64,000 nucleotides of DNA from Caldisericia bacterium (GCA_963674785.1 OY771555.1:1792001-1856000); one strand, 5' to 3'. Shown: positions 54,297 to 64,000, numbered from the stretch's first letter. A program made the numbers and translations. Notes: a model not told the origin generated them from the sequence alone.

Positions 54297-55316
54297 TCAT
54301 TTCAAACTTGATCTCATATAGGTTCCACCTGGAAGTTTTTTTATAATATTTTTCAAATCTAAAACTGTTAAAACTGGTAAAACAGCCTCCGGAGGAAGAT
54401 TTAGAGCTGTGCAAAGTTCATCTAGTGTAAGCGGATTTGAACAAGCTGCAACAACCTTTGATTCAAGATCGCTTAAAACAGTTTCGTTACTCTGAAGACC
54501 CACACCAAGGACTTCAAGCACATCATTTGGGGAATCAACGAGGATCGCTGAATCCTTTATCAACCTGTTGCATCCAGCAAAACTGTTCATACCAGGAAGC
54601 CCTGGGCAAGCCATCACATCTCTTCCAAGCTCCATTGCTTTCCTTGCAGTTATTAATGCTCCAGACTTTTCTGGGGCTTCAACGACAACAATGGCAGATG
54701 AAAGTGCTGCAATTATTCTATTTCTCCAGGTGAATGTCCATTTGCCTGCAGGGAAATTATCTGGGAATTCCGAAACAATAGCTCCTTTTTTAATAATCCT
54801 CTCAGCAAAGGATTTTTTTCTACTTGTGAGCTTCCCGATACCTGAACCGATAACGGCAACAGTTGTTCCATCCGCATCAAGACAGCCTTCATGTGATGAG
54901 CTATCTATACCATCTGCAAGGCCTGAAACAATAGAAATACCAGAGCTTGCTATGTCTCTGGCAAACGATCTTGCAATGTGCATGCCCTGAGGTGTTGCCT
55001 TTCTTGTTCCAACCATGGCAACGGAATTTTTTGAAACTTCATTAAGATCTGCATTACCCCTCATAAATAAACAAACCGGTGGGCTTTCAAGGTGAAAAAG
55101 CGCCACCGGATATTTTTCATCATCCTGAGTAATAATCTCAGAATCAGACTCTCTTAACTCAACCTCAGCAAACTTTCGGGCTTCGCTGAGGGCTTTCTTA
55201 TCAATACTACCTAGAATACTGTCCGGACTATTTTCTTTTACAGCCGAACAGATGGAAGGCTTCCTGCTTGCAAGAATTGCAAGAGTCAACCAATCCAATC
55301 TAGATAACTCACTCAC
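54297..55316 (-). CDS. dprA: DNA-processing protein DprA
   Basis: AMVGTR, IVSGLADGID, RNRIIAALS, VVEA..KSGALIT, C-terminal winged helix. Confidence 0.95.
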   Translation of the reverse strand: MSELSRLDWLTLAILASRKPSICSAVKENSPDSILGSIDKKALSEARKFAEVELRESDSEIITQDDEKYPVALFHLESPPVCLFMRGNADLNEVSKNSVAMVGTRKATPQGMHIARSFARDIASSGISIVSGLADGIDSSSHEGCLDADGTTVAVIGSGIGKLTSRKKSFAERIIKKGAIVSEFPDNFPAGKWTFTWRNRIIAALSSAIVVVEAPEKSGALITARKAMELGRDVMACPGLPGMNSFAGCNRLIKDSAILVDSPNDVLEVLGVGLQSNETVLSDLESKVVAACSNPLTLDELCTALNLPPEAVLPVLTVLDLKNIIKKLPGGTYMRSSLK

Positions 55317-55582
55317 TATAGCTTTTTATTATAGACCCAAGTCAATGAAGCCAAACCGGTGAAAACCAAAAAGGCACCGAAAGAGGCAACAACCCACTGC
55401 TGAAATGGAGTTTTGTCAAGCAGATATTTCATACTTCCTGCCGAACTCATCAATCTCTCAACTCTTTTAATGTTGTCGGGTCGAATGGCATCCCATACCT
55501 CAAGACCAATTATCAAACAAAGACAGAGGGCTGCAAGCGCCACAAGGACAAACATAATTGCGGTTGCTTTTTCTTCCTTCAT
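55316..55582 (-). CDS. Small two-TM membrane protein, possible complex subunit
   Basis: 88 aa, two hydrophobic helices, abuts or overlaps both neighbours. Confidence 0.72.
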   Translation of the reverse strand: MKEEKATAIMFVLVALAALCLCLIIGLEVWDAIRPDNIKRVERLMSSAGSMKYLLDKTPFQQWVVASFGAFLVFTGLASLTWVYNKKL

Positions 55583-55831
55583 CTATTTTTCCTTTCCTAA
55601 CAAATTCTCAAAAAATGATACTTTTCTTGTGATTCTTCCCCTTGCCTTTTCAGATGCATACATCCCAAAAACGAGAAGAAACATCGAAACCAAAAAGAGC
55701 AAAAAGAAAACAATAATCTGAAAATAGAGCATAAACCCACTAAAATCAGATTTGACTAAATTTACTATCTGAGAAACTGAGAATATCGCAGCAAACAAAG
55801 CCAAGAAGAAAAGTATCAAATGTTTGTTCAT
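55583..55831 (-). CDS. Small two-TM membrane protein, possible complex subunit
   Basis: 82 aa, two hydrophobic helices, TAATG overlap with the cytochrome b stop. Confidence 0.72.
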   Translation of the reverse strand: MNKHLILFFLALFAAIFSVSQIVNLVKSDFSGFMLYFQIIVFFLLFLVSMFLLVFGMYASEKARGRITRKVSFFENLLGKEK

Positions 55832-57885
55832 TATTCGGCTCTCACCTCTACCAAACCAGGGTCAATTCCGAGTTTTTCAGCAAGAACTTTCTTTTTATTG
55901 GATTTCCTCATACGCCACCAGACATAAAGCAGGAAGGCAACAATAAACACAAAAGCATTAAAGAGAAGAATTGCATTTATATACAACTGTCTTTGAGCAT
56001 CTTGGAACGGAATCCAATAAGCAGCCAATGAACCAAACAAGAAGAAGGTTAGACCGCCAATCGCAAGCGTGATAAGTCCAGGTCTTCCCTTGGCTGATCT
56101 TTCGGGTCGTTTGTCAAACAGTGGAAACATGACAAGGAAAACAATGAATAGTAGCGTAACGAGTGTTCCAACATATCCCGGAAGGAATTTCAAATAGAAG
56201 TAGACAAATAGGAAATACCAATCCGGCAGAATATGGTCGGGCGTTTTTACGGTGTTCGGAGGTGGTTCGTTTGCCGCAGGCAGATATAAACACGCGGAAA
56301 CAATTACAACCACAAGCAATAGTATTGCAATCCAATTTATCTTTGGTCGCTTTTTCCTTGATCTGATAAAGTATATCTCTGCCATCATAAATAGAAGGAT
56401 CGGCAAGAAATAATGGATAATATTGAATCTGAGGATTGTTGTTTGTCCAACCTGATGAGCTCCAAGACCCATATACTTTAGAGCTGAACCAAGACCTAAT
56501 TGTCCAATAACCGGCATACTATCCAGAGAATTCATCATCTGAGTACCAACAGTCGTAGCCCAGTATGCCCTTTGGTCGAATGGAAGAAGGTAACCTGTGA
56601 CACCAGAGAATGTTATTAGAACGACAATGATTGTAAGGAGTATCCAAGTAAGTTCGCCTGGTTTTTTAAACTCACCACAGAAAAACATTCTTATCCACCT
56701 AAGCATAAGAAGTGCAATAATTCCGTATGCACCATATCTATGGATTCCTCTTATCCACTGGGTAAGAGGTTTTTTTGAGATTTCTGCAACAGAATTATAA
56801 GCTCTGGTTACTGTCACGCCCAAATCTTCTGTGATTGTGTCGGCAGATTTTCCCATCAAACCAGTAAGTTCTTCAACAGCAATCTTCACAGCATCATCTT
56901 TACCATGGGCAAAATGATGGAGCTTTTCTTTCTGTTCTTCCGACAGGTTAGCAAAAATTGGTTCAAGTTTTTGAGATTCTTCGATTGCATCGGGAATAGG
57001 TAATCCAGCATATGTTGTACCATCAATGACTTCAGCTTTTGTTTTTCCCGCAAACTGAAGAATGCTTCTCTCATAATCAGTGACCGTATCGCTTTCCTTG
57101 AGCATTGCTTCATCTGCTTCAGCAATCATATCATCAATTGTGATAGTTGTCTTTTCACCATTTTCAATCTTTGCTATAGGTAGCCCATAAGAAAGAAGTG
57201 TTGTAGAATCCTCGCTCAACCTATAAATAGAAAACAACTCAATGATATGGTCTCGAAGAACATCAGCTTCATCAATGGCCTCGGTTATCTGAGTTTCTCC
57301 ATGATATGTTCCGGCAACCAAATCATCAGCATCCTCAGAGGCAAGTTCCATGATTTTAAGATAGTTTTCATCACAGGCAACTTGCTCTTCATCTGTCATC
57401 TTCTTGTATTCTTTTTCATGACTTTTACCAAGAGTAATGAGTCCCTCAAGGTCTCTGACAGGTGAATCGATCTCAAGATTTTCGACTACATATTCAAAAT
57501 CCTTTTTTCCAACAACCTCAAAAATCTCTCTCTGGTGTTCAGAATCAAAATCATAATGCTCGATAAAAAGATGATGAATCTCCTCTGCCTCTTCCATCAC
57601 CATCTCATATGTATGTCCATGTGAATACGTAACAAGCCCGGGTTCAACTTTATCAACTGGTGTGGTGTCAGGAATATAGAGGAATGTCAACACAAGCCCG
57701 AGGCAGACCTGCAAAATGAGCAACACATATATCATAGAACCCATCCAGTAGAATGGATTCGATTTCTTATACTCAGGTGTATTTTCATCCAGAATATTCA
57801 TATTCTGGGCTCTATCTCTCCACCATCTCATCCACTTTTTCGAGAAGTTTGAGAGCCAAATTGCAAATTTATCTGTAATACTCAC
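55831..57885 (-). CDS. Cytochrome b (Rieske/cytb type) with ~290-aa insert; only bL His ligands; PDWY motif
   Basis: GYLLPFDQRAYWA, PDHILPDWYFLF, IRGIHRYG, RFNIIH; second His of each pair replaced by R and Y. Confidence 0.88.
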   Translation of the reverse strand: MSITDKFAIWLSNFSKKWMRWWRDRAQNMNILDENTPEYKKSNPFYWMGSMIYVLLILQVCLGLVLTFLYIPDTTPVDKVEPGLVTYSHGHTYEMVMEEAEEIHHLFIEHYDFDSEHQREIFEVVGKKDFEYVVENLEIDSPVRDLEGLITLGKSHEKEYKKMTDEEQVACDENYLKIMELASEDADDLVAGTYHGETQITEAIDEADVLRDHIIELFSIYRLSEDSTTLLSYGLPIAKIENGEKTTITIDDMIAEADEAMLKESDTVTDYERSILQFAGKTKAEVIDGTTYAGLPIPDAIEESQKLEPIFANLSEEQKEKLHHFAHGKDDAVKIAVEELTGLMGKSADTITEDLGVTVTRAYNSVAEISKKPLTQWIRGIHRYGAYGIIALLMLRWIRMFFCGEFKKPGELTWILLTIIVVLITFSGVTGYLLPFDQRAYWATTVGTQMMNSLDSMPVIGQLGLGSALKYMGLGAHQVGQTTILRFNIIHYFLPILLFMMAEIYFIRSRKKRPKINWIAILLLVVVIVSACLYLPAANEPPPNTVKTPDHILPDWYFLFVYFYLKFLPGYVGTLVTLLFIVFLVMFPLFDKRPERSAKGRPGLITLAIGGLTFFLFGSLAAYWIPFQDAQRQLYINAILLFNAFVFIVAFLLYVWWRMRKSNKKKVLAEKLGIDPGLVEVRAE

Positions 57886-57899
57886 CTATCTCCTCCTTC

Positions 57900-58742
57900 T
57901 CAAAATACCGGCATTTCATCAACTTGTGCAGCTGAGAAAACTGGACCATCCTGACATACATAGTGATGTCCAACATTGCACCGACCACATTTTCCAAATC
58001 CACAATTCATTCTTGCTTCAAGTGAAACAAAAATGTTTTCTTTTGGGAAGCCAATCTTATCGAGTGCTATCAATGTGAACTTGATCATTATCGGTGGACC
58101 AGACGCTATAACTGCAGTATTGGTAAATCCTGGGTCATCCTTAAACAGAAGCGATGACTTGTTTGCGAATTCTTTATCATAGAACTGAGGTACAACACCT
58201 ACATCGTGAGTCCAATTTTTGTCACCGTTATCAACAGTCAGCTTGATGTCAAAGTCTTTGACAGATTTCCATTCATCAAGTTCTGGTTTGAAAACAAGGT
58301 CACCTGGTGTTCTTGCTCCATACAAAAGCTCCATTCTTTTGAAGTCATTTCTGTTATCAAAAGTATACTGCATAATGTTGCTAATAGCTGGAAGCCCAAC
58401 ACCACCAGCCATGAATGAAATATTCTTGCCTTTAAGTTTGTCTACTGGGAAGCCATTTCCAAATGGTCCCCTGAATGTGAGATTGTCACCAACTAAGTGC
58501 TCATGGATTTTTTCAGTAACCGCACCAACACTGGCAATAGTAAGCTTGATAAATCCCTTCTGAGTTGGGGATGAACCGATAGAGATTGCGGATTCACCAA
58601 CACCCGGAACACCAACAATACAAAACTGACCAGGATTATAATTCAAATCATTCTTGAGTTTCAGCTTGAATGATTTTATAGACTCTGTTTCATTGATAAT
58701 TTCTAAAATTTCAACTATTTCTGGTTTTGACATATCTGTCAT
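57900..58742 (-). CDS. FlxA/HydG/AsrB-like FAD/NAD-binding [2Fe-2S] subunit
   Basis: PGQF, RGPFGNGF, AGGVG, YGART, GPPIM, MNCGFGKCGRC..CQDGPVF; start after GGAGG. Confidence 0.9.
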   Translation of the reverse strand: MTDMSKPEIVEILEIINETESIKSFKLKLKNDLNYNPGQFCIVGVPGVGESAISIGSSPTQKGFIKLTIASVGAVTEKIHEHLVGDNLTFRGPFGNGFPVDKLKGKNISFMAGGVGLPAISNIMQYTFDNRNDFKRMELLYGARTPGDLVFKPELDEWKSVKDFDIKLTVDNGDKNWTHDVGVVPQFYDKEFANKSSLLFKDDPGFTNTAVIASGPPIMIKFTLIALDKIGFPKENIFVSLEARMNCGFGKCGRCNVGHHYVCQDGPVFSAAQVDEMPVF

Positions 58743-59782
58743 AAAACACCTCCTAATGAGGCTAATGTGTCTGCAAGAGAGATTCCAGCAGGACAAAGGT
58801 CTGTGCATCTTCCACAACCTGTACATGCAATCTCGCCATAGAGAGTCACATGATATTCAAATTTATCCAAGATTCTGTTTTTGAATCTGTCAGCGGTTGT
58901 TGGTCGCGGGTTGTGTCCGGATGCCTCAAGGCTGTATGTGCAGAAACTACAAGAGTCCCAGCATTTAATCTTTTCAGATTCATCTGGTTTCGTCTTGATC
59001 TCTCTGGTTTCAAAACAGTGACATGTCGGGCAAAGAAGGGTACAGACACCACATGTGATACAACCCATGCTAACTTCTTCCCAAACATCTGTTTTCTTGT
59101 AGAGATCCATGAGTTTTCCGGCGTTTTCTGTTGGAACCTTCAAAGTAATCATGGATTCACATTTTTTGTTTGCCTCAGCCTGGGCAGCAGCGGGATTTCC
59201 ATCATCTGTGAAGAAGGATTTATTATCAGCAAGGAATTTTTTTCCTTTTTCTGAAACCTGCATCACAGTGTATCCACCAATGTCTGGAATAAAGAGAAGG
59301 TCTGAACCCTTTTCATCTGCAGGATGAATTCCAAGTGATGTACATGAACAGGTTGAAAGAGGTTTTGTGCAGGCAACCGAAAAAACAAGGGTTTTTTCAC
59401 GATGTTTCTTCCACTGTGGATCAATATGCTTCTGCTCTCCACCATCTTTTCTTTTTGTGTCCATAAAGAAATTATCAAGGAGCATAAATCCTTTTGCATC
59501 GCACGGTCTCACACCAAAAATTACAGTGTTCTCGATTTCAGGTGCTTCTTTAATTTCAAGTATTTTTCCAGCGGTCGATCTTGTTGTAAGAATTTTTTCT
59601 GTCTGCGGAAAGATAATCTCTTTTGGTGGTGTTTTTGTTCTAACTGTATCCAAATCTATTTTTGCATTTTCAGCAATTAGATGAAAATTTGTTGTTCCAT
59701 CAATCTTCTGAGGGACAAAAACTCTCGCATTATCAGAGATTGTAAGAAGAAGTTCGTTAAGTTTATCGTGTGTAATCTTCAT
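58739..59782 (-). CDS. FlxB/HydB/AsrA-like 4Fe-4S protein
   Basis: PKEIIFPQTE, FGVRPCD, CITCGVCTLLCPTCHC, CTGCGRCTDLCP. Confidence 0.88.
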   Translation of the reverse strand: MKITHDKLNELLLTISDNARVFVPQKIDGTTNFHLIAENAKIDLDTVRTKTPPKEIIFPQTEKILTTRSTAGKILEIKEAPEIENTVIFGVRPCDAKGFMLLDNFFMDTKRKDGGEQKHIDPQWKKHREKTLVFSVACTKPLSTCSCTSLGIHPADEKGSDLLFIPDIGGYTVMQVSEKGKKFLADNKSFFTDDGNPAAAQAEANKKCESMITLKVPTENAGKLMDLYKKTDVWEEVSMGCITCGVCTLLCPTCHCFETREIKTKPDESEKIKCWDSCSFCTYSLEASGHNPRPTTADRFKNRILDKFEYHVTLYGEIACTGCGRCTDLCPAGISLADTLASLGGVL

Positions 59783-59787
59783 AAAAA

Positions 59788-60780
59788 TCAACCCCCTAAA
59801 ACTTCCTCACCCTTTATGAGTGACAATGGGGATGTAGCCTTTTCAGAGATTCCAGCGGCAAATTCCCAGTTTTCCTTCTGCATCAGTCTGAGCTGGTCTG
59901 TAATAATATTCAATGGAATATTCTCAGGACACGCCCTTGTACATTCGCCACAACCAGTGCATCTGTCTGAAAGGTGGTAAAAGTGAATAAAATGATACTG
60001 CAGAATGTCTTTTAGTTCGTGTGATTTATGAATGAATGGTTCAGGAAGCTTCTGCCTGTCCATAACACAGTTCTCATTACAATGACAGCCTGGGCAGGCA
60101 TCTCTACACGCAAAACACATTACACATCTTGAGAGGTGTTTTAAAATGAAGTCCTGTCTCACATGGAATGGTTTATCTTTATATTCAGAAACCCAATCCA
60201 TATTCATTTCATCCTTTGACTCTCTTGGATCGTCATCTGGAATCAAAAGATCGAAGTTATCTGGTTTTGTGATTGAACAATGGATACATTTTGGAAGCAA
60301 CCAATCTTCTCTCTCGAGTTTCATCTTTGAACCATCGAGGAGTTCAAGCTGAATACTCTTTCCATCATCAATGATTTCTTTTGAGTCAATATGAAGTGAA
60401 TCTCTCATTCGAGATACATCAAGGTTTCCTGAGCAGTTTACTCCTAGTACCCAGAAACCGTGTCTGTCGAGTTTACTCTCAGAGACGCTGACTTTTATCG
60501 ATTTTGAATCACACCCTTTAACAAGAATTCCAATTTTTTTCTTTGGCTGTTTCAAAGATTTTATGAAGTTGCTTTTTCCTTCAATCATCCTCACAAGGTT
60601 TTGAGTGCAGAACGAATCGTAAACCAACTTATCAGCATCCTCTGCTGTCCTACAAACGAATGGTCTTCTTTTTCCAGATATTCCGTCTACTTTTCTATAA
60701 CCGATAAAAGCAGAGATTTTTCCAGAGTTAAGCTCATCTTTTACTACCTCGCGGAGGTACTCTAAAATCTGTGTGTTCAT
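59788..60780 (-). CDS. FlxC-like (FrhB/FdhB-related) 4Fe-4S protein
   Basis: KGCD, KCIHC, CVMCFACRDACPGCHC, CTGCGECTRACP. Confidence 0.85.
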   Translation of the reverse strand: MNTQILEYLREVVKDELNSGKISAFIGYRKVDGISGKRRPFVCRTAEDADKLVYDSFCTQNLVRMIEGKSNFIKSLKQPKKKIGILVKGCDSKSIKVSVSESKLDRHGFWVLGVNCSGNLDVSRMRDSLHIDSKEIIDDGKSIQLELLDGSKMKLEREDWLLPKCIHCSITKPDNFDLLIPDDDPRESKDEMNMDWVSEYKDKPFHVRQDFILKHLSRCVMCFACRDACPGCHCNENCVMDRQKLPEPFIHKSHELKDILQYHFIHFYHLSDRCTGCGECTRACPENIPLNIITDQLRLMQKENWEFAAGISEKATSPLSLIKGEEVLGG

Positions 60781-61184
60781 ACAGCAACCTCCTTTTCAGC
60801 AAGATTCTTTTTTAGAGATGAGATTGTTCTTGTGAGTTGACCAGGGTCAAGCCTGTCTCTTTGAATGTAAACCATTCTCCATGGGTCAATTCCAAGAGCC
60901 TCAGCTACATTTTTTGCTGAGAAGACCCTTCTTTTTGCAAATTGGTTTCCATCAAAATTGTGGCAATCAAACTCGGGGCAGGCGTAAACAATAACACCAC
61001 CCGCACCCTCCATTAGTGACTTAAACATAACAATAGGGTTTACCATTCCAGCACAAGCAATTTCGACAAAATCGACGCTTGGAAACCTGTTTTTATGTTC
61101 TTCAAGATGTTTTCCTCGAAGAGAACCTTTACAATGAAGAACAATGATTTTCTCACCAATAGGAAGTTCTACTGACTTATGCAT
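60777..61184 (-). CDS. MvhD/FlxD-like [2Fe-2S] subunit
   Basis: LHC, CAGMV, GAGGV..C...DCH..GN..A.RR, GIDP.R MvhD pattern. Confidence 0.85.
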   Translation of the reverse strand: MHKSVELPIGEKIIVLHCKGSLRGKHLEEHKNRFPSVDFVEIACAGMVNPIVMFKSLMEGAGGVIVYACPEFDCHNFDGNQFAKRRVFSAKNVAEALGIDPWRMVYIQRDRLDPGQLTRTISSLKKNLAEKEVAV

Positions 61185-62239
61185 ATATCCCTCATTCCCT
61201 GGAGCAATCCTTTGCTCTCCATTCCTTCAAGTTCAATCACCTGAGGAAGACAACCAGCAACGCATATCCCACAAGCCTGACATCTTCTCGGCGTAACATA
61301 TGCAACCTGTTTGGTTTCAGTTCTGTTGATTTTATATGTTTTTTTGCTTATTGCATTTTTTGGACAAAGAGTAATGCATGCAAAGCAACCATTACATCTG
61401 GCAGGGTCAACTTTCGCTGCTTTTGTAATCTTTTTGCCAATAAGAGGTAATGCTACAAGCAGACCCACAATGCCAACCCAAACGATCTGTGCAATGTTTT
61501 GAGATGGCAGTTTTATCATCCATAATCCAACCCAATCAAATGAATATTTAGCAAATTTCATTTTCATTTCGGCTTCAGGGATTGGGAATAGTGCAATAAT
61601 TATTGCAAGGAAACCCAATGAGATAATCGTAAGAGCAATTGTTGGAACAATTGGTGGTCTCGAAATTCTGACGAAATGCCAAATGAGTCCAGCAAAAACA
61701 AGAATAGGAAGACCAATGTGTACAGCTCTGTAAATAACCAGCAGGGCACCAGAAGAAATCGACATCCCGAAGAACTCAACAATTTTAAATGACCTTGCAT
61801 CCATAGGAAGAATATATCCAGAAACAGTGATTCCAATGGTCATAATAAGAAGACCAATACCGACATACCAACCAACTGATCTTGTGCTTGTATGTCTTCC
61901 TGCAAAAAGTTTTCTGAGTAGATGCAATACAGCAAAGATTATCATTGCATCTGCTGCATACCTGTGGAGTGTTCTGATAAATAATCCATAAGGTACCATA
62001 TCAGACATAATGTAAAGAACAGAGTTTCTCGCATGTTCAATCGATGGCATATAAAAGAAACTAAGAAGGAACCCTGAGATTATCTGAACAAGAAAAAACA
62101 ATAATGTCAGAGAGCCAAGATGATTGAAAATATTAATTGATGAAAAACCTGCCTTTAAAACGTCAGCGATTCCAAGAAACCCATTAATGAAAAAATTAAA
62201 AGGTTTTCTAAGACTATAAGCATCTCGTCTACTCATCAT
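61169..62239 (-). CDS. Cytochrome b N-domain (four heme His) fused to C-terminal 2x[4Fe-4S] ferredoxin
   Basis: H-x13-H in both helices B and D; CNGCFACITLCP and CQACGICVAGC. Confidence 0.88.
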   Translation of the reverse strand: MMSRRDAYSLRKPFNFFINGFLGIADVLKAGFSSINIFNHLGSLTLLFFLVQIISGFLLSFFYMPSIEHARNSVLYIMSDMVPYGLFIRTLHRYAADAMIIFAVLHLLRKLFAGRHTSTRSVGWYVGIGLLIMTIGITVSGYILPMDARSFKIVEFFGMSISSGALLVIYRAVHIGLPILVFAGLIWHFVRISRPPIVPTIALTIISLGFLAIIIALFPIPEAEMKMKFAKYSFDWVGLWMIKLPSQNIAQIVWVGIVGLLVALPLIGKKITKAAKVDPARCNGCFACITLCPKNAISKKTYKINRTETKQVAYVTPRRCQACGICVAGCLPQVIELEGMESKGLLQGMRDICISQ

Positions 62240-62796
62240 GCTAGCCTTTCCGGAGTTTTTTTATCAATAATTATGCTTCCATCATCTTCAACAATAACCG
62301 TCCAAGGATGAAGAGGGCTTGGAGGTGGACCACCAAGGACTTTGGTCATAGTTGGGTCAAAGAAACCATCATGACATCTACAATGCCATGTTTTTGATTC
62401 TGTATTCCATCTGACAACACAACCAAGATGAGTACATTTTGCATCCCAAGCCATAAGCGTACCATTTGTATCCTTAATCAAAATTCCGGGTTCCCTAATT
62501 TTGATTGGCTTGTAAGGGATTGAACGATCTTCGGTGATGATCTCAAAAGAATATCCGACCATGCTTTCAAGCTCATCTTTTTTCGCAGGGACTGGTACGA
62601 AAGAATCACCAACGGGTTTCATGACGGATGCTAATTTGTTAACCGCAACGGGCGCTGGTGGCACCTCAAGTCCAATCTTACCAAATGGCTTCAAAAGTCT
62701 GAGAATCGGTGATAAAGCAGCTAGAATTGCTCCAAAAAAAGGAACAGCTAGCAGGACTTTTAGCAGTTGCCTTCGAGTGACCTTTTTTTCTTCCAC
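62236..62796 (-). CDS. Rieske [2Fe-2S] subunit with Tat-like anchor
   Basis: TRRQLLK plus TM helix, CTHLGC, CRCHDG, GPPP; GTG start after AAGGAGG. Confidence 0.92.
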   Translation of the reverse strand: MEEKKVTRRQLLKVLLAVPFFGAILAALSPILRLLKPFGKIGLEVPPAPVAVNKLASVMKPVGDSFVPVPAKKDELESMVGYSFEIITEDRSIPYKPIKIREPGILIKDTNGTLMAWDAKCTHLGCVVRWNTESKTWHCRCHDGFFDPTMTKVLGGPPPSPLHPWTVIVEDDGSIIIDKKTPERLA

Positions 62797-62826
62797 AACA
62801 AGTCCTCCTTTCCATTTCCAGTAGCT

Positions 62827-62855
62827 AGATTATTCGGTTTTTTTTGGTATGTCAA
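62827..62855 (-). promoter_or_regulatory. Sigma70 promoter of Rieske/cytb-Flx operon
   Basis: TTGACA-17 nt-TAATCT on the minus strand. Confidence 0.55.
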
Positions 62856-62916
62856 ATATGTTTTATAAACAATAAGAGGTATTAACTTTAACAAAAAAGA
62901 CAGCTCAGAAAAGAGT

Positions 62917-62934
62917 TTGTAAGCATTTTCACAA
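62917..62934. promoter_or_regulatory. Putative Rex operator
   Basis: TTGTAAG-CATT-TTCACAA versus consensus TTGTGAA-N4-TTCACAA. Confidence 0.5.
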
Positions 62935-62990
62935 AACGAGTCAAGATGAAAAAAAAGTAAAAGTTCAGCATCAGAAAATTTGCTGATAAT

Positions 62991-63018
62991 AAAAAAGCGG
63001 GGCTCAAGCGAGCCCCGC
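62991..63018 (-). terminator. Intrinsic terminator
   Basis: GCGGGGCTC-GCTT-GAGCCCCGC followed by a T-run on the minus strand. Confidence 0.88.
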
Positions 63019-63040
63019 CAACATAAAGTTTTTGTTTTAT

Positions 63041-64000
63041 TTACCCAATATTTGGGTTGACAGGATAGTAGATTTTGATTGACTTTGTTGCACCAATCCA
63101 CTCGACAGATGCACCAAGTGCTTCACTTATAAATCTGAGTGGAACAACAGTTCGACCATTGATGATCAATGGAGCCACAGACATAGAAACAACACTTCCG
63201 TTAACCATTGCTTCAGACACACCAACCCAAAGTATAACTTCTCTTCCTTCAAGTTTATATGTAACTTTTTTATCGGTTCCGTCCCACTCAATTTCTGCGC
63301 CGAGTGCTTCACCAATAAATCTTAGAGGAACGACAGTGCTACCATTTTTTATAACCGGTGCAGGGTCAACTGGCACCGATTCATTATTGATAATTGCAGT
63401 ATTGGAATTTATCTGCAACTCAATGAGATTACCGATTCTTCTTGCTTTGCACTCAATTGTCGCTGTTCCGCCATTTGATTTGATTGTAATTGTACCTGTC
63501 GCATCACCCCAGGCAGAAAGTTTTGAAACATCACAATACACCTTAACAGCAAGATTACCTGTGAAAGTATTATCTGAGAATCTTAACCAAGGAACGTCTG
63601 TTTCAATTGATCCACTAAGTGCCGCAGAAGTCGAATTTGTGATTGTAAATGAATCCTCTAGAATCCCTGATTTTGACTGTGGAAAGTTTATTGAAGTTTT
63701 ATCAACCGACAAAATTGGTTTTACAACGCCTTTTTCAAAAATCTGAACTCTCTGATTACCTGAGTCGAGAACATATATCTTGCCTTCACTTGTAGCAAGC
63801 CCGGTTGGATTATTGAATGTTCCAAGATGGCTCCAATAATCATCAATCGATGTTTTAGTATACATCGGTGTTTTGTCACCTTTTGAATACAAGTGTTTGC
63901 CATCAATTGAGAAAAAATGAAGTTTGTTGTTTCCGGTATCTGATACAACAACACTCAAATCATCGGTGATACAAATTCCAGTTGGATTTTTCATATTGAG
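63041..64000 (-). CDS. Partial NHL-repeat protein with BACON-like and stalk domains (N-terminus beyond window)
   Basis: NPTGI..VSDTGNN and NPTGL..YVLDSGNQRVQ NHL repeats; duplicated TVVPLRFI stalk. Confidence 0.82.
   Translation of the reverse strand, partial: LNMKNPTGICITDDLSVVVSDTGNNKLHFFSIDGKHLYSKGDKTPMYTKTSIDDYWSHLGTFNNPTGLATSEGKIYVLDSGNQRVQIFEKGVVKPILSVDKTSINFPQSKSGILEDSFTITNSTSAALSGSIETDVPWLRFSDNTFTGNLAVKVYCDVSKLSAWGDATGTITIKSNGGTATIECKARRIGNLIELQINSNTAIINNESVPVDPAPVIKNGSTVVPLRFIGEALGAEIEWDGTDKKVTYKLEGREVILWVGVSEAMVNGSVVSMSVAPLIINGRTVVPLRFISEALGASVEWIGATKSIKIYYPVNPNIG

Follow-up and report, generated by a model that had tools for sequence, protein, structure and literature searches.

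Rieske/cytochrome b complexes and their relatives have been described in several forms that bear on the locus reported here. Kao and Hunte (2014, PMC4122944) describe a 'PDWF-FeS clade' of cytochromes b fused to 4Fe-4S and MvhD domains, and link the PDWY motif to organisms that use menaquinol. In anammox bacteria, the Rieske/cytochrome b complexes Kuste4569-4574 and Kustd1480-1485 carry a nicotinamide adenine dinucleotide (phosphate) (NAD(P)) oxidoreductase subunit (PMC12954380), and a 'complex III-IV operon' is known from Melainabacteria (Soo et al. 2017, as cited in bioRxiv 10.1101/531145). In engineered Rhodobacter bc1, either fused or cross-inactivated, electron transfer between the low-potential hemes (bL) of the two monomers can sustain turnover (PMC4330944, PMC4152375). 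Here we analyze a stretch of 64,000 nucleotides from a Caldisericia bacterium (GCA_963674785.1 OY771555.1:1792001-1856000; "the window", with positions counted from its first letter), in which a single operon encodes a Rieske protein and two unlike cytochromes b, cytb-1 and cytb-2. Our reading, to which we assign a probability of roughly 0.6, is that these proteins would form a three-heme heterodimeric core from which the low-potential electron exits through an iron-sulfur/NAD(P) arm and not through the usual quinone reduction site (Qi).

The two cytochrome b genes had been predicted from the DNA alone. Both open reading frames (ORFs) lie exactly where this original prediction placed them, on the minus strand, and both match Pfam Cytochrome_B (1e-24 for cytb-1 and 3.4e-24 for cytb-2):

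61169 to 62239, minus strand: cytb-1, 356 amino acids, a cytochrome b of six helices, followed at the C terminus by a 2x[4Fe-4S] ferredoxin domain
55831 to 57885, minus strand: cytb-2, 684 amino acids, an eight-helix cytochrome b
56815 to 57660, minus strand: acidic insert of cytb-2, 282 amino acids, in the loop between helices A and B

In keeping with bc1 and b6f structures, we take the first histidine of helices B and D to be the ligand of bL (bp) and the second to be the ligand of the high-potential heme, bH (bn). Cytb-1 keeps all four heme histidines, H92, H106, H174, and H188. HMMER comparison with solved cytochrome b6 chains aligns H92 and H106 to both helix-B histidines, and H174 and H188 have the spacing of a helix-D pair. 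The same four histidines, together with eight cysteines, are invariant in a 30-sequence alignment of cytb-1. The Fer4 domains recognized by Pfam occupy approximately residues 275 to 340; given six helices and the usual topology with the N terminus inside, the ferredoxin domain would be cytoplasmic and next to bH. The window copy lacks both the PEWY/PDWY motif of the quinol oxidation site (Qo) and the full cd loop. FDWV stands where PEWY is expected, and the loop is ≈18 to 21 residues shorter than in b6 and in the cytb-1 relatives of other phyla. A fold search with the cytb-1 model returned ordinary bc1 and b6f chains only, and neither this search nor a PDB sequence search found the fused cytochrome b-ferredoxin architecture in any solved chain.

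Cytb-2 shows the complementary pattern. Aligned by HMMER to solved b6, its H382 is the first helix-B histidine and its H491 the first helix-D histidine, and the second positions are occupied by R396 and Y505, respectively. The protein also has an invariant glutamate, E503, and retains PDWY (residue 554) together with the complete cd region. The motifs quoted in the original prediction were found at residues 91, 173, and 234 (FDWV) of cytb-1 and at residues 381, 490, and 554 (PDWY) of cytb-2. Alignment with reference b6 upholds the histidine numbering for both proteins, and with it the claims that cytb-1 retains four heme ligands and that cytb-2 keeps cd1/cd2 and PDWY while the second histidine of each pair is replaced. 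The short cd loop and FDWV ascribed to cytb-1 are likewise correct for the window, but the conservation of FDWV does not extend beyond the window's own family, and the corresponding position in the other Caldisericota families carries no motif of this kind. Substitute bH ligands in cytb-2, which would have undone the original interpretation, were looked for in a 29-sequence alignment and rejected, as only two histidines are invariant among these sequences.

The cytb-2 insert lies in an outer loop and is acidic (68 Asp/Glu versus 24 Lys/Arg) and contains 12 histidines. It occurs in only two genera of the window's family, the other orthologues being 383 to 490 residues long, and it gave neither a Pfam family nor an Atlas match; this His-rich acidic segment could be a docking or metal-binding surface. 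Two cytb-2 orthologues (G063:C14:277323-279374 and G082:C38:18879-19826) each contain one in-frame stop (TGA and TAG), and these may be assembly errors or broken copies.

Within Caldisericota, cytb-2 occurs in 25 of 93 genomes, with a clear division by family: 10/10 in the window's own family, 13/13 in a second, 1/2 in a third, and 0/67 in four others. All seven core genes occur in one conserved order in 17 of 20 stretches retrieved; in the remaining three, contig ends interrupt the set. All four histidines of cytb-1 are present in 19/19 sequences. Arginine occupies the second helix-B site of cytb-2 in 20/20, and the second helix-D site is tyrosine in 18 and phenylalanine in one of the 19 sequences that reach it; PDWY is present in 19/19.

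The pairing extends to other phyla. A genome scan, with one genome per species, identified 591 cytb-1 relatives among 600 candidate stretches. The best 80 of these were kept and comprise five loci from Caldisericota, 14 paired loci of other phyla, and 61 fusions without a Rieske gene. The 14 paired loci come from Cyanobacteriota/Melainabacteria, Firmicutes (including Symbiobacterium thermophilum), Armatimonadota, and Acidobacteria, and have the order Rieske, cytb-2, small protein, cytb-1-ferredoxin, MvhD. Their cytb-1 has the four histidines in 14/14. In their cytb-2, the second helix-B site is lysine (six) or arginine (eight), the second helix-D site is tyrosine (seven), phenylalanine (three), arginine (three), or histidine (one), and the Qo motif is SDWY. 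In two loci that we checked, one from Cyanobacteriota/Melainabacteria and one from Holophagaceae, genes for a cbb3-type oxidase (COX1 and FixO families) and a diheme cytochrome c lie just upstream.

A metagenome scan with the cytb-2 alignment gave 536 relatives among 595 stretches; of the best 80, 70 belong to the cytb-2 family and 10 ordinary cytochromes b were set aside. Both bL histidines and [PS]DWY are present in 70/70 of these cytb-2 sequences, as is a glutamate that precedes the second helix-D site by two residues. Arginine is found at the second helix-B site in 65, lysine in five, and histidine in none, and the second helix-D site is Tyr (40), Phe (19), Arg (four), Leu (four), Met (two), or His (one). 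A cytb-1 gene was found in 49 of the 70 loci, that is, in 49/49 of those with enough flanking sequence. The other 21 leave <0.9 kb of sequence after cytb-2 or, in the Caldisericota order, <2.4 kb ahead of it, so cytb-1 could not have been seen there. The metagenomic cytb-1 sequences have four histidines and eight cysteines in 48/49, the exception being a truncated ORF. The reciprocal losses are therefore kept by homologous loci in Caldisericota, in four other phyla, and in 70 metagenome loci, as the original prediction called for, and the ligand split is a family trait and not a local accident.

These counts bear directly on whether cytb-2 might bind a second heme through unusual ligands, or might instead be a redox-dead structural subunit. 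Lysine, tyrosine, and, in one locus, histidine do occur at the former bH positions, and Pyrobaculum cytochromes b are reported by Kao and Hunte (PMC4122944) to lack one bH ligand. On the other hand, the helix-B site is arginine in 65/70 metagenome sequences and the helix-D site drifts among Y, F, R, L, M, and H. Arginine does not ligate heme. Nor is the invariance of the bL ligands and [PS]DWY, in all 70 sequences, expected of a dead subunit. We find either version of this idea hardly credible.

We modeled the cytb-2/cytb-1 pair with three hemes; the sequences were the shorter orthologues of locus L044 (383 and 335 amino acids), with their own alignments. The heterodimer scored an ipSAE of 0.70 (0.69-0.71 over three runs), compared with 0.00 for the best of three controls; a mark of 0.70 is reached by 58/80 solved complexes and 2/110 mismatched pairs. 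At least 80% of contacts agree between runs, and the partner predicted local distance difference test (pLDDT) value is at least 77. The modeled interface is formed by helices A and D. In L044 numbering, residue 205 of cytb-2 touches residue 165 of cytb-1, a contact that adjoins the bL ligands H204 (cytb-2) and H164 (cytb-1), and the invariant Glu216 of cytb-2 is among the interface residues listed. The modeling suggested with the original prediction thus outscores its controls, and the interface that it gives lies next to both bL ligands, although this outcome may reflect the likeness of the pair to solved cytochrome b homodimers, which share the interface. A stronger argument for the heterodimer is that the low-potential electron could not leave a homodimer of cytb-2 and that cytb-2 was never seen without cytb-1.

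The two cytochromes b are part of a set of nine tightly packed genes on the minus strand, running from 62796 down to 55316. Besides cytb-1 and cytb-2, its features, assigned by Pfam, NCBIfam, and PDB sequence search, are as follows:

62996 to 63019, minus strand: intrinsic-terminator-like hairpin with a 10-pair stem, eight G-C pairs, and a T tail
62236 to 62796, minus strand: Rieske [2Fe-2S] protein, 186 amino acids, one N-terminal membrane helix (Pfam Rieske, 1.9e-07)
60777 to 61184, minus strand: MvhD/FlpD-like protein, 135 amino acids (Pfam FlpD, 6.6e-19)
59788 to 60780, minus strand: iron-sulfur protein, 330 amino acids, with a C-terminal two-cluster 4Fe-4S domain (Pfam Fer4 families)
58739 to 59791, minus strand: sulfhydrogenase beta/AsrA-like iron-sulfur subunit, 350 amino acids (PDB 9nez_B, 1.5e-45; Pfam Fer4_22)
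57900 to 58742, minus strand: sulfhydrogenase gamma/AsrB-like subunit with flavin adenine dinucleotide (FAD), NAD(P), and [2Fe-2S] domains (PDB 9nez_C, 8.7e-50)
55583 to 55831, minus strand: small membrane protein, 82 amino acids, two helices
55316 to 55582, minus strand: small membrane protein, 88 amino acids, two helices

Several stop codons overlap the start of the next gene, as at the Rieske stop and the cytb-1 start. The hairpin is the strongest minus-strand terminator-like site within 54800-63300; it closes the upstream gene, so the operon begins after it with the Rieske gene first. The gene upstream of this strong terminator (63041-63994, minus strand) encodes NHL repeats and two Cu_amine_oxidN1 domains. 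By BLAST, the 88-residue protein is conserved only in the window's own Caldisericota family, and the 82-residue protein has a look-alike after cytb-2 in most loci of other phyla, with weak scores of 18 to 42 bits against a profile built from Caldisericota. In a metatranscriptome run, ≈5% of the sampled words were present, and the four contigs of this run are 90 to 95% alike and so derive from a relative; parts of the operon left uncovered carry no meaning. One of these contigs, of 982 bases, bridges the boundary between the gamma-like gene and cytb-2, with the proviso that contigs from an RNA library do not prove transcription.

The Rieske boxes C-x-H-L-x-C and C-x-C-H-x-G are conserved in 19/19 Caldisericota orthologues. 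The protein has a single hydrophobic segment (residues 14-32) and a twin-arginine-like motif, TRRQLLK, and matches the NCBIfam b6f and bc1 Rieske models below their cut-offs. Its orthologue at L044 (G073, from another Caldisericota family) has no RR motif at the called start, so its start or export route may differ from that in the window. Four cysteines of the MvhD-like protein are conserved in 19/19 orthologues and probably bind a [2Fe-2S] cluster, the cluster that MvhD carries. The C-terminal half of the 330-residue iron-sulfur protein matches a formate dehydrogenase beta subunit (8rvu_E, 8.5e-20). The PDB matches of the beta- and gamma-like subunits are to the corresponding subunits of Pyrococcus furiosus sulfhydrogenase I, and the beta-like subunit also matches NCBIfam ShyB/HydB (1.8e-50, below cut-off). 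The gamma-like subunit contains Pfam FAD_binding_6, NAD_binding_1, and DHODB_Fe-S_bind; it is this homology of the beta- and gamma-like subunits that points to NAD(P) as the putative end acceptor. The true start of the gamma-like gene is likely the ATG at 58742, giving 280 amino acids, and not position 58826: an ATGA stop/start overlap occurs at 58742 with AGGAGG six bases upstream, and several orthologues are 280 to 287 residues long, others being called longer from the first possible start.

We propose that the nine genes would encode a single membrane complex, built around a heterodimer of the two cytochromes b. Cytb-2 would provide the only working Qo pocket and one heme, bL, and would be served by the single Rieske protein, whereas cytb-1 would carry bL, bH, and, facing the cytoplasm, the 2x[4Fe-4S] domain. 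Of the two electrons of the quinol (probably menaquinol) oxidized at Qo, one would reach an outer acceptor by way of the Rieske cluster. The other, low-potential electron would move from bL of cytb-2 across the interface to bL and then bH of cytb-1, and from there through the fused ferredoxin domain, MvhD, and the pair of iron-sulfur proteins, to arrive at the FAD/NAD(P)-binding subunit. Quinol oxidation would thereby be coupled to the reduction of NAD(P)+ or of a different low-potential acceptor, or the complex would run backwards.

Several observations weigh against this scheme, and one group of them concerns the cytochromes b themselves. The cytb-2 of Symbiobacterium is the one of the 14 from other phyla that has histidine at the second helix-D site. 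In the same phyla, the cd loop of cytb-1 is full-length and a DW[FLY]Y-like motif is present, and this cytb-1 may have a quinone site of its own, its pocket being less clearly dead than in Caldisericota. The original claim that quinol chemistry happens only at cytb-2 thus fits Caldisericota, where the cd loop is cut or the ef motif is missing, and is less clear for the cytb-1 of other phyla. The interface score covers only the cytb-1/cytb-2 pair and so leaves homodimers compatible with it. Finally, in 61 of the 80 genome loci a cytochrome b-ferredoxin-MvhD fusion was found but neither a Rieske gene nor cytb-2, and a cytb-1-type protein can accordingly work without cytb-2.

Such solitary fusions raise the possibility of two separate homodimers, a Rieske/(cytb-2)2 complex and a (cytb-1-ferredoxin)2/MvhD/NAD(P) complex resembling the Rieske-less fusions of proteobacteria. 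We examined the origin of the pair in a quick maximum-likelihood tree of 57 sequences (14 cytb-2, 14 cytb-1, 20 Rieske-less fusions, and nine ordinary metagenome cytochromes b). The tree, which is unrooted and contains a small ordinary sample, separates cytb-2 and the ordinary sequences from cytb-1 and the fusions with a Shimodaira-Hasegawa-like approximate likelihood ratio test (SH-aLRT) value of 100. The pair is therefore not a recent duplication but derives from different cytochrome b lineages, and these separate origins, with cytb-1 among the fusions and cytb-2 among the sampled canonical cytochromes b, would suit two independent enzymes. Yet cytb-2 forms one group with a support of 98, and loci that cluster in the cytb-1 subtree cluster in that of cytb-2 as well; from the sequences, the pair appears to unite a cytochrome b of Rieske type, which has lost its bH, and a protein of the iron-sulfur-linked lineage, the two inherited together. 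A cytb-2 homodimer would contain bL hemes only and could not discharge the low-potential electron, cytb-2 is accompanied by cytb-1 wherever it could be seen (49/49, 14/14, and 17/17 loci), there is a single Rieske gene per operon, and the modeled heterodimer interface passes its controls. Taken together, we regard two homodimers as distinctly improbable and retain the heterodimer.

Two cytochromes b also occur side by side at other loci recovered in these scans. In genomes of Burkholderiales type and related ones (loci L068, L073, L078, L096, L097, L105, L107, L108, L110, L111, L121, L129, L130, and L134), the Rieske-less fusion lies beside a second cytochrome b that is fused to a flavin reductase-like domain (≈630-1070 amino acids), which makes another unlike pair. 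Four more loci, L089, L092, L119, and L122, have two tandem cytochrome b-ferredoxin-MvhD fusion genes; three are from Mariprofundaceae (Zetaproteobacteria) and one from an uncultured gammaproteobacterium.

The remaining points that tell against the forward scheme come from the genome at large, which consists of one 2.23-Mb contig and is estimated to be 92% complete. It contains only these two cytochrome b genes, one membrane-type Rieske gene, and one further Rieske-domain protein without a membrane anchor. A MenA homologue scores over its cut-off and three NuoL/M/N-like genes lie at C1:1734991-1739484, ≈52 kb before the window, so that a menaquinone pool is plausible. No match to a NuoF-type NADH-binding domain was found in the genome, which suggests a complex I-like enzyme that lacks an NADH module. 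A cluster of CcmABCEF-like genes at C1:1975567-1979993 resembles cytochrome c maturation system I. The genome gave no ALAD/HemB match; heme may thus be imported, and tetrapyrrole synthesis may be absent. Neither a redox acceptor for the Rieske protein nor a cytochrome c1/f was found by Pfam in the operon or its flanks, a search that included the small proteins, the upstream NHL/Cu_amine_oxidN1 gene, and the conserved flanking ORFs of another Caldisericota family. In the whole genome, there is no match for a heme-copper oxidase, cytochrome bd, a molybdopterin oxidoreductase, or NrfD. The midpoint potential of menaquinone is about -74 mV and that of NAD+ is -320 mV, so forward bifurcation needs an outer acceptor above ≈+170 mV, and no such acceptor was found in the genome of this anaerobe. 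The two checked loci from aerobic relatives do encode acceptors, namely, the diheme cytochrome c and the cbb3 oxidase.

Other candidate acceptors were considered. Among 3944 ORFs of at least 80 amino acids, 25 have one CXXCH motif and none has more, which eliminates multiheme cytochromes c. For fumarate reductase, the one strong FAD_binding_2 match lies between ORFs of 303 and 275 amino acids and could be either NadB or FrdA. The Cu_amine_oxidN1 domain of the gene upstream of the operon recurs in CXXCH proteins elsewhere in the genome. One of these (C1:1061772-1063259; L145:7773-9260) has a signal peptide, a Cu_amine_oxidN1 domain, one CXXCH, and a weak C-terminal cytochrome c match (E = 7e-4), and its neighbor (L145:6878-7624) has a signal peptide, a Cu_amine_oxidN1 domain, and a single CXXCH. 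Both are possible monoheme cytochromes of the envelope and, as such, possible partners of the Rieske protein.

In the window's anaerobe, the complex may therefore run in reverse or use another outer acceptor. Run in reverse, the same heterodimer would take an electron from NAD(P)H through MvhD and the ferredoxin domain to bH, bL, and the second bL, reaching the Qo site of cytb-2, where it would join an electron from the reduced Rieske protein to reduce menaquinone (confurcation); alternatively, the arm would simply pass electrons from the cytoplasm to an outer acceptor. Such a direction would make sense of a separate membrane entry for NAD(P)H in a genome that has NuoL/M/N-like genes and in which no NuoF-type domain was found, and the lack of a high-potential acceptor system among the matches speaks for it and against the forward direction in this anaerobe. 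It has costs of its own, however: by the potentials given above, quinone reduction on the outer side would spend membrane potential and would waste the energy gap between NADH and quinone; a donor for the Rieske protein is as unaccounted for as an acceptor; and in aerobes the module follows genes for a cbb3-type oxidase and a diheme cytochrome c, the usual forward arrangement. On balance, we consider reversal somewhat unlikely and lean toward the forward heterodimer. The interpretation put forward with the original prediction is partly supported, and that part well, by comparative evidence. The sequences show the genes, the heme ligands of each protein, how well these are conserved, and how strictly cytb-1 and cytb-2 occur together; the heterodimer, the route of the electron, NAD(P) as its partner, and the direction we infer.

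The natural relevance of bL-to-bL transfer in bc1 is still debated, and an enzyme that depends on this step, if the proposal is true, would be a natural test case. It would also show that the low-potential electron of quinol can leave the membrane for NAD(P)H or iron-sulfur carriers without spending membrane potential, a form of quinone-based bifurcation that has so far been proposed for anammox bacteria only (PMC12954380). The module is widespread, with a relative encoded in 536 of the 595 metagenome candidate stretches and 70 of the best 80 in the family, and its clustering with cbb3-type oxidase genes in two loci means that models of respiration in such groups may need revising. Stated at its fullest, the proposal is of an obligate natural heterodimer with three hemes, present in at least five phyla, in which bL-to-bL transfer is the only route and bifurcation at Qo feeds a low-potential cytoplasmic reductant. 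In that form we offer it tentatively, as somewhat short of an even bet.

Literature searches returned no description of paired cytochromes b with complementary heme sites, the supplements of PMC4122944 being a place where more members of the FeS clade may be listed, and no paper on Caldisericum cytochrome b and Rieske. Among described systems, the canonical bc1, b6f, and Firmicute-type bc complexes share with this operon a Rieske protein with bc-type boxes, the cytochrome b fold, PDWY, and the predicted helix A/D interface, and, in structure, the cytb-1 model most closely matches chains of bc1 and b6f. The operon differs from them in having unlike cytochromes b, three heme sites in place of four, no gene for cytochrome c1 or f, and, as proposed, an iron-sulfur exit in place of the Qi site. 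The four histidines that hold two hemes in bc1 and b6f are present in cytb-1 but not in the Qo-bearing cytb-2. The beta- and gamma-like subunits resemble P. furiosus sulfhydrogenase I, but here there are no hydrogenase subunits and the module is attached to a membrane cytochrome b. In the FlxABCD complex of sulfate reducers, an MvhD-like subunit stands alongside NAD(P)H oxidoreductase subunits. By this definition, all the domain types of Flx are present here: a FAD/NAD(P) subunit, two iron-sulfur subunits, and an MvhD-like subunit. Flx is associated with HdrABC, and no Hdr gene is among the nine genes of the operon, the part of the genome to which that search was confined.

The 'PDWF-FeS clade' likewise joins a cytochrome b to a 4Fe-4S domain and MvhD, and cytb-1 groups with such fusions in our tree. 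Those are single fusions with no Rieske or cytb-2 gene found beside them, whereas here MvhD is separate and cytb-1 is always paired with a bH-less cytochrome b; the available text of Kao and Hunte (PMC4122944) does not mention complementary cytochrome b pairing. The closest functional proposal is that for the anammox complexes, in which the low-potential electron would likewise pass to a cytoplasmic FeS/FAD subunit and NAD(P)+ and not to Qi (PMC12954380, available portion). They have one b6-like cytochrome b with subunit IV, multiheme cytochromes c, and a different NAD(P) subunit, and that portion of the paper does not mention a bH-less paralogue, a fused ferredoxin, or MvhD. Comparable to the Melainabacteria operon, the Rieske, cytb-2, cytb-1-ferredoxin, and MvhD module follows cbb3-type oxidase genes in the Cyanobacteriota locus and in the Holophagaceae locus; the window's genome has no oxidase match and adds a four-gene NAD(P) module between the cytochromes b. 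The Rhodobacter constructs, finally, are laboratory versions of a symmetric enzyme, whereas the complex proposed here would depend on the bL-to-bL step naturally.

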